Positions 1 to 6,157 of a stretch of DNA of 64,000 nt are shown in pieces. Position 1 is the first letter of the stretch; every line of letters begins with the position of its first letter. Location: the NCBI RefSeq assembly GCF_057098645.1, contig NZ_CM169472.1; one strand, given 5' to 3'. A program made the position numbers and the translations under genes. The notes beneath the pieces are model-generated. The model searched no databases, was not told where the DNA came from, and saw nothing but the letters and a program-made list of their open reading frames with translations.

Positions 1-133
1 TCTTTGAAGAAGCGCCACAAGCCTATAAATCGGCTGAAAGCGTGGTGCAATGTCTGGTGCAGGCCGGATTAATTATTCCTGTCGCGCGGCTGCGTCCGGT
101 GCTAACGCTCAAAAACAGTGGAGGGAAAAAAGG

Positions 134-748
134 ATGATCTTGCTACAACTCTCCTCTGCTCAGGGGCCGGAAGAATGTTGTCTCGCAGTGAAAAAGGCGC
201 TGGACAGGCTGATTAAAGAAGCTGCTCGACAAGACGTCGTGGTAACAGTGCTGGAAACAGAAACAGGTCGTTACTCTGACACGCTGCGTTCGGCGCTGAT
301 TTCTCTGGATGGCGACAACGCATGGGCGTTAAGCGAAAGTTGGTGCGGCACTATTCAGTGGATTTGTCCGAGTCCGTATCGGCCTCATCATGGGCGCAAA
401 AACTGGTTTCTGGGCATTGGGCGTTTTACCGCTGATGAGCAGGAGCAATCCGATGCGATCCGGTATGAGACGCTGCGTTCGTCGGGGCCGGGTGGTCAAC
501 ATGTCAATAAAACCGACTCGGCGGTACGCGCCACGCATTTGGCATCCGGTATTAGCGTGAAGGTTCAGTCAGAACGCAGTCAGCATGCTAACAAGCGGCT
601 GGCACGATTGCTGATTGCCTGGAAGCTGGAGCAACAGCAACAGGAAAATAGCGCAGTGCGGAAATCGCAGCGGCGAATGTTCCATCACCAGATTGAACGT
701 GGCAACCCGCGACGAACGTTCACAGGGATGGCTTTTATCGAAGGATAA
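134..748 (+). CDS. prfH: Peptide chain release factor homolog PrfH (204 aa), start taken at MILLQLSS within the longer ORF
   Basis: ORF track 50..748; translation contains the GGQ peptidyl-hydrolase motif ([15 protein letters not shown]) and matches the PrfH N-terminus from the internal ATG at 134. Confidence 0.8.
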
Positions 749-770
749 TGAAGGATGAAACTGCCGGAAG

Positions 771-801
771 GCGATTAAACGCCATCCGGCAGCAAATCAA
801 A
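771..801. terminator. Imperfect hairpin between convergent prfH and pepD, putative bidirectional terminator
   Basis: ctgccggaaggcg ... cgccatccggcag inverted repeat (one mismatch) seen directly between the two stop codons. Confidence 0.4.
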
Positions 802-3072: not shown

Positions 3073-4317
3073 ATGACACAGGCAAACCTGAGCGAAACCC
3101 TGTTCAAACCCCGCTTTAAACATCCTGAAACCTCGACGCTAGTCCGCCGCTTTAATCACGGCGCACAACCGCCTGTGCAGTCGGCCCTTGATGGTAAAAC
3201 CATCCCTCACTGGTATCGCATGATTAACCGTCTGATGTGGATCTGGCGCGGCATTGACCCACGCGAAATCCTCGACGTCCAGGCGCGTATTGTGATGAGC
3301 GATGCCGAACGTACCGACGATGATTTATACGATACGGTAATTGGCTACCGCGGCGGCAACTGGATTTATGAGTGGGCCACCCAGGCGATGGTGTGGCAAC
3401 AAAAAGCCTGTGCGGAAGAAGATCCGCAACTCAGTGGTCGTCACTGGCTGCATGCGGCTACGTTGTACAACATTGCCGCCTATCCTCATCTGAAAGGAGA
3501 TGACCTGGCCGAGCAAGCGCAGGCTTTGTCAAACCGCGCCTATGAAGAGGCCGCTCAGCGTCTGCCGGGCACGATGCGGCAGATGGAGTTTACCGTACCC
3601 GGCGGTGCGCCCATCACCGGCTTTTTGCATATGCCAAAAGGTGATGGCCCGTTTCCAACGGTTCTTATGTGCGGTGGCCTGGATGCAATGCAAACGGATA
3701 ACTACAGCCTGTATGAGCGATATTTTGCGCCACGTGGCATTGCAATGTTGACCATTGATATGCCCTCGGTGGGGTTTTCGTCAAAATGGAAGTTAACGCA
3801 GGATTCCAGCATGCTGCACCAGCATGTATTAAAAGCGCTGCCTAACGTACCGTGGGTGGATCACACTCGCGTCGCGGCCTTTGGTTTCCGTTTCGGCGCT
3901 AACGTTGCCGTGCGTCTGGCATACCTTGAATCGCCGCGTCTGAAAGCGGTTGCCTGTCTTGGTCCGGTAGTTCATACCCTGTTGAGTGATTTTAAGTGCC
4001 AGCAACAGGTGCCGGAAATGTATCTTGACGTTCTGGCCAGTCGTTTGGGGATGCATGATGCTTCCGACGAAGCGTTGCGTGTTGAGCTGAATCGCTACTC
4101 ATTAAAAGTGCAAGGATTGCTGGGGCGTCGTTGCCCAACGCCAATGTTATCAGGCTACTGGAAGAACGATCCGTTTAGCCCGGAAGAGGATTCACGTTTA
4201 ATCACGTCGTCATCTGCTGATGGTAAATTATTAGAGATTCCGTTTAACCCCGTGTATCGGAATTTTGACAAGGCGCTTCAGGAAATCACTAACTGGATCG
4301 AAAAGCGATTGTGTTAA
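3073..4317 (+). CDS. frsA: Esterase FrsA (fermentation/respiration switch protein, 414 aa)
   Basis: ORF track; [27 protein letters not shown]... alpha/beta hydrolase family, full length. Confidence 0.95.
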
Positions 4318-4776
<459 letters not shown>

Positions 4777-4784
4777 ATGAAATG

Positions 4785-4807
4785 TGCCGGATGCATCACA
4801 TCCGGCA
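4785..4807. terminator. Hairpin between convergent crl and phoE, putative bidirectional terminator
   Basis: tgccggatg catcac atccggca inverted repeat between the two stop codons. Confidence 0.4.
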
Positions 4808-4814
4808 ATATTCA

Positions 4815-5870
4815 TTAAAATTGATAGGTCATGCCAACCGCGACAATATCATCATTATTGATATTCAGCTTATTATCGCTATTCAGTTGGTTTATTTTAT
4901 AATCAACAAATGCTGACATATTTTTGTTGAAATAATACGTGGCACCGACATCAATATAATTGACCAGATCTTCATCACCGATGCCCTCAATATCTTTCCC
5001 TTTCGATAAGACATAACCCAGCGACGGACGCAGACCAAAGTCAAACTGGTATTGAGCAACCGCTTCAAAGTTCTGTGTCTTATTAGCAAAACCACCAGAT
5101 ATTGGCGTCATTTTACGTGTTTCAGAATAAAAAGTTGCCAGATAAATATTATTGGCATCGTATTTCAGACCTGTTGCCCACGCTTCTGCACGCTTACCTG
5201 TGCCACGGCTTTGCATGTTCTGCTCGTTGGTGCGATCAGAGTTGGTATAGGCACCACTGATAGCGAAATCGCTGCCGCCAAAGTCATATGTCAATGACGT
5301 GCCGAAGCCATCGCCGTTTTGCTTTTTCACATCGCGGTTTTCGTTTTTCCCTTGATATTGCAGGGTTAAGTTCAGACCATCGATAACGCCGAAGAAGTCG
5401 GTGTTCCGATACGTCGCCAGACCGCTGGCGCGTTTGGTCATAAAGTTGTCGGTCTGCGCCGAGGAGTCGCCACCAAATTCCGGGAACATATCGGTCCAGG
5501 CCTCCACGTCATACAGCGCGCCCAGGTTACGACCATAGTCGAAAGAACCCAAATCTTTATATTTCAATCCGGCGAAAGCGAGACGCGTTTTTTGCTGTGC
5601 AGTATCACTCTCCGCTTTATTCCCGGCAAACTCCGCTTCCCAACGACCATAACCAGTCAGTTGATCGTTAATTTGTGTTTCGCCTTTAAAACCAAAACGG
5701 ATATAACTCTGGTCGCCATCTTTACTGTCATTATCACTCATATAATGCATGGCTTTAACTTTGCCATAGATATCCAGTTTATTACCGTCTTTGTTATATA
5801 TTTCTGCGGCCTGTACGGATGCAGATGCCACAATGCCCATCACCACTAATGCCAGAGTGCTCTTTTTCAT
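4815..5870 (-). CDS. phoE: Outer membrane phosphoporin PhoE (351 aa precursor); start at MKKSTLAL, 2 codons inside the track ORF
   Basis: ORF track 4815..5876; signal peptide plus porin sequence [22 protein letters not shown]..., C-terminal ...VAVGMTYQF. Confidence 0.95.
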
Positions 5871-5942
5871 TTTCATTCCTGATTTTAATTAACGCGCGGA
5901 TATTCAGCGGGAGAGCCCCGTTGAAAACAGGAAAGTTTTTAA

Positions 5943-5969
5943 CCTGAGATTGTTAAAGATATATTACAG
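5943..5969 (-). promoter_or_regulatory. Pho box (PhoB binding site) in the phoE promoter
   Basis: Minus-strand sequence CTGTAATATATCTTTAACAATCTCAGG lies about 75-100 bp upstream of the phoE ATG; recalled as the phoE Pho box, with CTGT-type repeats. Confidence 0.5.
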
Positions 5970-6157
5970 ATTAATGATATTCTTAAAATGTGGTAATTTA
6001 TTAAATCTGTAATAAAAGCGTAAACAACTGCCGCTAGGCTTGCTGATCCCGCGCAACAAAACGCCATGCTTTGCTCGCAGATGGTTGGCAACCGACGACA
6101 GTCCTGCTAAAACGTTCGTTTGATATCATTTTTCCTAAAATTGAATGGCAGAGAATC

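Follow-up and report, generated by a model that had tools for sequence, protein, structure and literature searches.

A Complete prfH, Very Probably Orphaned by Loss of Its rtcB2 Partner, in an O145:H28-Type Escherichia coli Chromosome

Introduction

An intact RtcB2–PrfH pair serves as a defense against ribotoxins that attack the decoding center, e.g., colicin E3 and CdiA-CT(ECL). On 70S ribosomes with a 16S rRNA cut between A1493 and G1494, PrfH occupies the A site, senses the new 3'-phosphate end and brings about peptide release via its GGQ motif (PMC9304027); after subunit splitting, the 16S rRNA is resealed by RtcB2. The cut 30S subunit is repaired by RtcB2 and not by RtcB1, and peptide release by EcPrfH is limited to the A1493/G1494-cut 70S ribosome, as shown for the ATCC25922 protein, which is 97.5 % identical to the one considered here (PMC9304027). 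When wild-type PrfH was combined with the catalytically dead RtcB2-H294N, only a small residual activity was seen in vivo (PMC9304027). Strain ATCC25922 without rtcB2 is sensitized to colicin E3, and over-expressed rtcB2 alone protects, while plasmid-borne prfH alone does not (PMC9223846); at the natural expression level, protection is afforded by the complete operon only (PMC13166195).

PrfH has in common with RF1/RF2 and ArfB the GGQ peptidyl-hydrolase domain, RF2 aligning over PrfH residues 7–172. It lacks domain 1, however, and in place of a stop codon it recognizes the end of the cleaved 16S rRNA (PMC9304027). A longer type, PrfH-CT (225–250 aa), represented by the Capnocytophaga gingivalis protein (9MOR/9MQ4), has a basic C-terminal tail by which it also rescues intact non-stop ribosomes, whereas the short-class EcPrfH has no such tail (PMC12829566). 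In K-12 and BW25113, the locus is inactivated (rtcB2'-'prfH, the ykfJ/prfH pseudogene), a deletion of ~1 kb having removed rtcB2 from codon ~70 on together with the first 36 codons of prfH.

The rtcB2–prfH module, including the prfH gene described below, is already annotated and characterized, and its occurrence in E. coli is nothing new. Here we consider the state of the pair at the start of a stretch of 64,000 nucleotides (the window; contig NZ_CM169472.1 of RefSeq assembly GCF_057098645.1). We conclude that what the window holds is very probably an orphan prfH in a decaying locus that has lost its ligase half, and not a working rescue/repair pair.

Results and Discussion

The Window Opens with the End of rtcB2 and a Complete prfH

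The locus belongs to an E. coli chromosome, with the gene order rtcB2'-prfH-pepD-gpt-frsA-crl-phoE-proBA. The elements recognized at its beginning are as follows.

1..137, + strand: 3' end of rtcB2, frame 3, with codons from base 3 and the stop TGA at 135..137; last 44 codons of RtcB2
1..72, + strand: frame-1 open stretch inside the rtcB2 coding sequence, ending with TAA at 70..72; not a gene
119..124, + strand: Shine–Dalgarno-like GGAGGG run, read directly from the sequence
134..137, + strand: 4-nt overlap ATGA between prfH start and rtcB2 stop, read directly from the sequence
134..748, + strand: prfH, encoding the whole of peptide chain release factor H (204 aa, short EcPrfH type; ATG at 134, TAA at 746..748)

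An earlier note on this DNA had described prfH as a complete 204-aa release-factor homologue with an intact GGQ motif, and this was borne out. The NCBIfam model TIGR03072 (release_prfH; IPR017509), an equivalog model with a cut-off of 166.65 bits, spans the product of the open reading frame at 134..748 end to end with a score of 327.5 bits (protein residues 2–201 on profile positions 1–200 of 200). The GGQ motif lies at residues 120–122 (G120-G121-Q122), so that the catalytic Q122 is present, and the Pfam RF-1 domain is also recognized (E 1.3e-24). The NCBIfam models for prfA, prfB and ArfB score far under their own cut-offs on the same protein. Its length of 204 aa, with no basic C-terminal tail, assigns it to the short type (~200 aa) by the length and tail criterion of PMC12829566; it is homologous to the C. 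gingivalis PrfH-CT, with which it shares GGQ and the rRNA-recognition domain (E 1.9e-39 to 9MOR), but the dual activity of that class is not expected of it.

When aligned with the solved ATCC25922 protein (PDB 7SA4 chain 8, 204 aa), the window PrfH is identical at 199/204 positions, end to end. None of the five substitutions (K20, A31, V36, V175 and R176) falls at a published contact residue. The residues reported to contact the cleaved A1493 3'-phosphate, h18/S12, C1914 and C1054 (PMC9304027) are all kept: A9, Q10, G11, P12, R52, S53, R83, H85, H86, R88, K89, N90, R181, H184 and R189. The pocket for the cleaved 3'-phosphate of A1493 and for C1914 (R83, H86, R88, R189; R52, S53, R181, H184; K89, N90; H85) is thus that of 7SA4 chain 8. 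Judged from its sequence, the prfH coding region looks fully functional, with no sign of decay.

Comparison with the truncated K-12 gene, which had been proposed as a check, showed that the window prfH is not truncated. Residue 37 is the first one left in the K-12 remnant, and alignments of K-12-type genomes start only at 227/230, whereas the window has prfH codons 1–36 and does not have the ~1-kb deletion by which rtcB2 codon ~69 was fused to prfH codon ~37. The two loci are otherwise alike in position and flanking genes, and in both the pair seems inactivated, but by different lesions: in the lineage of the window prfH is complete and rtcB2 is interrupted (see below).

An in-frame ATG at position 50, which would give a 232-aa open reading frame, was considered as the prfH start and rejected, because bases 50..133 code for RtcB2 in a different frame; the PrfH model, the solved 204-aa protein and RefSeq (WP_000602116.1 in the near-identical genome RM12761) all begin at 134.

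The Upstream Gene Is rtcB2, Read in Frame 3

The same earlier note had taken a frame-1 reading frame, running from the window edge to the TAA at 70..72, for the end of an upstream partner gene. Frame 1 is indeed open from base 1 to that stop, but it is not the gene; the real one is in frame 3 and ends with the TGA at 135..137. The frame-1 stretch had no family match among Pfam and NCBIfam profiles and, when the identical UTME-3 sequence was used to provide upstream context, it proved to be open for only 30 codons (window −20 to 72). It was therefore rejected as the partner gene and is a chance open frame within rtcB2.

The frame-3 translation, by comparison, matches the C-terminal end of both the Pfam RtcB profile (390–425 of 426, E 2.8e-7) and NCBIfam PRK09588 (336–378 of 379, E 8e-16), and 43 of its 44 residues are identical to residues 336–379 of UTI89 RtcB2. 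The RefSeq annotation of RM12761 places the upstream gene at the same coordinates, and in UTME-3 frame 3 stays open for 216 codons back to the end of an insertion sequence (IS). The guess that the partner upstream belongs to the RtcB family was accordingly right, even though the frame was not.

The stop of rtcB2 and the start of prfH share the 4-nt ATGA, an overlap annotated identically in UTI89, C325 and RM12761. This is the usual layout for translational coupling.

The Window Belongs to the O145:H28 Lineage

From its sequence, the window is assigned to the Shiga toxin-producing E. coli (STEC) O145:H28 lineage, that is, to O145:H28-type E. coli. In direct comparison it was >99.9 % identical to O145:H28 strain RM12761 over 20 kb, with 7 mismatches in the first 20 kb, and RM13516 scored equally well. 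UTME-3 was also >99.9 % identical over 20 kb, and the first 900 nt of the window are exactly those of UTME-3. No complete genome matched the window exactly, the best differing by 7 SNPs in 20 kb plus an indel further on. At position 85 the window shares its base with the IS-bearing UTME-3, whereas RM12761, RM13514 and C325 all differ from it.

Two differences in gene content were observed upstream of the pair. The yafN–yafO toxin–antitoxin genes (dinB–yafP interval) are present in K-12 and UTI89 and absent from O145-type genomes. A segment of ~130 nt in the yafP–rtcB2 intergenic region is found in O145-type and K-12-type genomes and is missing in UTI89:

3918-4046 of the RM12761 extract: ~130-nt yafP–rtcB2 intergenic segment
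5654-5782 of another extract: the same segment
~2980 of the UTI89 extract: corresponding position

The Ligase Gene Is Split in Nearly All Close Relatives

rtcB2 itself extends beyond the edge of the window, so its state was deduced from the 26 complete genomes that are at least 99 % identical to the window. In 25 of these, rtcB2 is split by ISEc20, an element of the IS110 family. For UTME-3, RM12761 and RM13514 the split was verified in the sequence, and the gene is annotated as two pseudogene fragments flanking the ISEc20 transposase. The layout comprises an N fragment of 518 nt, the IS of 1,451 nt and a C fragment of 619 nt that runs into the window, with the transposase on the strand opposite to rtcB2. 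In near-identical genomes the nearer IS end lies ~480 nt upstream of window base 1 (in RM12761 the element is ~0.5–1.9 kb upstream).

The insertion falls within the codons for the invariant HSGSRGLG motif of RtcB2; RtcB2 shares the sequence VH(S/T)GSRGLG with the RtcB structures from T. thermophilus and P. horikoshii. With the IS in place, the reading frame of the N fragment continues for 188 codons to a stop inside the IS. When the IS was taken out in silico, rtcB2 was in frame and 368/380 identical to UTI89 RtcB2, without Leu174.

The sole IS-free genome of the 26 is that of C325. Its PrfH is identical to that of the window and its rtcB2 is uninterrupted, but the product, at 378 aa, reads SGSRAGQ where the invariant motif has SGSRGLGQ, a residue being missing. 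None of the 26 showed both an uninterrupted 379-aa rtcB2 and an intact HSGSRGLG: either the IS lies inside the motif codons or, in C325, the motif is SRAGQ. Extension of the sequence upstream, suggested earlier as a way to find an intact RtcB reading frame, fails on these grounds for the lineage.

Could the genome from which the window comes nevertheless have an uninterrupted, active rtcB2 and a functional rescue/repair operon? In about half of the complete E. coli genomes (2,675/5,426), prfH does lie next to an uninterrupted rtcB2 of standard length; the window preserves the 44-codon tail and the ATGA overlap, and a close relative, C325, is without the IS. However, 25 of the 26 close genomes (at least 99 % identity) bear the IS, and the genome of the window would have to be unlike all of these. 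C325 is a poor guide in this respect, as a ~10-kb insertion sets it apart from the window in the first 20 kb and its own RtcB2 has SRAGQ, not SRGLGQ; moreover, at position 85 the window has the base of the IS-bearing UTME-3 and not that of RM12761, RM13514 or C325. We regard a working pair as most improbable, and the genome of the window in all likelihood carries an IS-split rtcB2.

The preferred reading, an orphan prfH, can then be spelled out as follows. At the yafP–rtcB2–prfH–pepD locus, the window begins in the last 44 codons of rtcB2, followed by an intact prfH. The ligase half would have been inactivated in this lineage by a 1.45-kb antiparallel ISEc20 in the HSGSRGLG-encoding DNA, as its relatives indicate. 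This would have left prfH without its upstream partner and probably without normal operon transcription and translational coupling. With rtcB2 broken, the repair step, and protection with it, would be lost in the lineage, and the repair defense against colicin E3 is predicted to be non-functional. The two-gene defense is probably dead because the partner ligase gene is split in all but one of the closest relatives. Since loss of rtcB2 is published to sensitize cells and prfH alone to fail to protect them, these data argue for an orphan prfH rather than a working pair. The earlier proposal of a possible rtcB–prfH ribosome rescue pair was thus right as to the identities of the genes, but given the IS-split rtcB2 in 25/26 relatives and the lesion in C325, the pair most likely does not work in this genome.

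Compared with the ATCC25922 operon (7SA4), the lineage shares the yafP–rtcB2–prfH–pepD locus, the ATGA overlap and a 204-aa PrfH with 199/204 identity; it differs in that rtcB2 is split by ISEc20 (or, in C325, has SRGLG changed to SRAG), so that the ligase step is predicted to be missing.

Could an Orphan prfH Still Be Useful?

An alternative to mere persistence is that the orphan prfH is retained, i.e., still expressed and selected, releasing peptides from ribosomes cut in the decoding center. Without repair the benefit would be small, with ribosomes split and turned over, or tRNA and mRNA freed. A small RtcB2-independent activity has in fact been recorded (PMC9304027), but plasmid-borne prfH alone gave no protection from colicin E3 (PMC9223846).

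The gene itself is intact. All eight genomes examined that have a broken rtcB2 are annotated with an intact prfH, which could mean that it is still useful; on the other hand, prfH is a small target (615 nt) and is without the hotspot found in rtcB2 (see below). Relative to UTI89 prfH, 26 nucleotide differences lie in synonymous codons and 5 in changed codons. Such a pattern of mostly synonymous substitution (26:5) would agree with selection, but it mostly reflects divergence older than the IS insertion.

As to expression, prfH has its own Shine–Dalgarno-like GGAGGG, but ISEc20 separates it, in antiparallel orientation, from the operon promoter region. A scan for sigma-70-like sites on the + strand found none from the IS to prfH or in the first 900 nt of the window, though the same scan also misses the native operon promoter. 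Rfam returned nothing in the rtcB::ISEc20–prfH region. Downstream of the gene, one structured element was recognized:

761..792, strand not assigned: strong GC-rich hairpin between the convergent genes prfH and pepD, which lie 56 nt apart (RNA fold dG −25.1 kcal/mol, z −6.2)

None of 200 shuffled sequences folded as well, and the better T-run is on the pepD side. This hairpin is a probable transcript-end structure, or terminator, shared by prfH and pepD.

The joint loss of rtcB2 and the 5' end of prfH in roughly half of E. coli genomes (see next section) also speaks against retention. On balance we consider it very unlikely that the orphan gene is kept by selection, whatever small benefit might be imagined; the prfH of the window is most likely a remnant that has not yet decayed.

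Distribution of the Locus States in E. coli

A survey of 5,426 complete E. coli genomes, in which the IS was counted with a query across the left rtcB2/ISEc20 junction, found a full-length prfH with the rtcB2 tail in 2,709. Uninterrupted rtcB2 (2,675/5,426) and the ISEc20 junction (34/5,426) add up to exactly this number. All 25 IS-bearing close relatives (at least 99 % identity) are among the 34 junction genomes. The K-12-type deletion of ~1 kb is present in most of the genomes outside the 2,709, amounting to roughly half of the total and including O157:H7, meaning that the species has no general need of prfH. Inactivation of the rtcB2–prfH locus is thus frequent in E. coli and has come about in several ways. 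Within an evenly spaced sample of uninterrupted rtcB2 alleles, 56/59 were of standard length and ~3/59 deviated.

ISEc20 Has Entered the Same Site in a Second Lineage

A second lineage (2014C-3061, among others) also has ISEc20 at the rtcB2 position that is occupied in the O145 allele. Sequence comparison located the two insertions as follows.

4581-6031 of the RM12761 extract: ISEc20 in rtcB2, O145 allele
3682-5132 of the second-lineage extract: ISEc20 in rtcB2

The two IS copies are identical at 1451/1451 positions; in the rtcB2 and prfH DNA around them, by contrast, the lineages are 3.3 % divergent as far as the junction itself. Identical elements in differing flanks fit independent insertions at one site, and the comparison suggests that the two lineages acquired ISEc20 by separate, site-specific events instead of inheriting a single one. 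Within the library searched, the literature on ISEc20 yielded no report of this insertion and no paper that names the element together with rtcB.

Five unrelated ISEc20 copies have a left-flank motif approximating CATAG-CGGCT-NN-GGGG and G-runs on both sides; an empty site for the element in an RtT repeat (extract 289-330) is a plain G7 run with no C. From these alignments, ISEc20 appears to own four G in total, to end in ...AAAGTAAC, and to insert conservatively into a G-run beside a recognizable motif. Conservative, motif-directed insertion is the behavior expected of IS110-family bridge-RNA-guided recombinases. The rtcB2 codons CAT AGC GGC TCG AGG GG resemble this target motif.

The DNA encoding SRGLG (rtcB2 codons ~171–176) is also a tract of variable length in a clade related to the allele of the window. 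The alleles encountered were:

UTI89: AGGGGATTGGGG at the rtcB2 site; standard allele
KSC207: C+G8; in frame, 378 aa, SRGGQ; exactly the allele expected in the second lineage before insertion
A30: C+G9; frameshift
Z1323PEC0010: C+G7; frameshift
E2865: CGGGGGTGGGG; frameshift
Z1323PEC0008: C+G63; possibly an assembly artefact
C325: AGGGCGGGG; RtcB2 shorter by one residue

Each poly-G variant genome is annotated with an intact prfH. The idea that such alleles are common was discarded, in view of the 56 of 59 evenly sampled uninterrupted alleles that have the standard length.

For the second lineage, the count of G residues is consistent with a simple insertion (7+5−4 = 8 G, as in KSC207). For the O145 allele it gives 6 G, a length that would shift the frame; a drift in run length, or an allele already frameshifted before the insertion, would account for this. 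It is doubtful that C325 represents the ancestral empty site, as the unrelated empty site of ISEc20 is a plain G7 run without C. The C in its GGGCGGGG looks like a scar, namely the terminal C of the IS, or else like a base substituted within a run of G8.

Taken further, the poly-G frameshifts and a target hit twice by ISEc20 might mark the SRGLG DNA as a recurrent inactivation hotspot in some clades, where RtcB2 would be switched off alone, reversibly or repeatedly, and PrfH would have an RtcB2-independent role. We deem this idea unlikely.

Implications

In terms of annotation, the case illustrates that a full-length prfH need not mean a working pair. STEC of serotype O145:H28 most likely lack the ligase half and are predicted to be sensitive to colicin E3 and CdiA-CT(ECL)-type toxins, which could matter for colicin-based control of STEC. 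The three ways of losing the defense (deletion in about half of the genomes, IS in 34 genomes, hotspot indels in a few per cent) also provide a modest lead on defense loss and on the role of PrfH alone, as prfH is spared in the IS and hotspot-indel classes and not in the deletion class.

Other Features of the Window

Elsewhere in the window, paoC (− strand) contains a premature stop, TAA at 17003-17005 (codon 509 of 732), where RM12761 has CAA (Gln). We read this as a strain-specific nonsense mutation in the gene for the large subunit of an aldehyde oxidoreductase. At ~34.9–36.9 kb, coordinates that are approximate in that the window and RM12761 diverge by an indel after ~30.7 kb, the RM12761 annotation shows a LysR-family regulator gene interrupted by an IS3-family transposase with a programmed frameshift. 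A partial second copy of ykgR and a frameshifted ykgL are annotated in RM12761 near that region.
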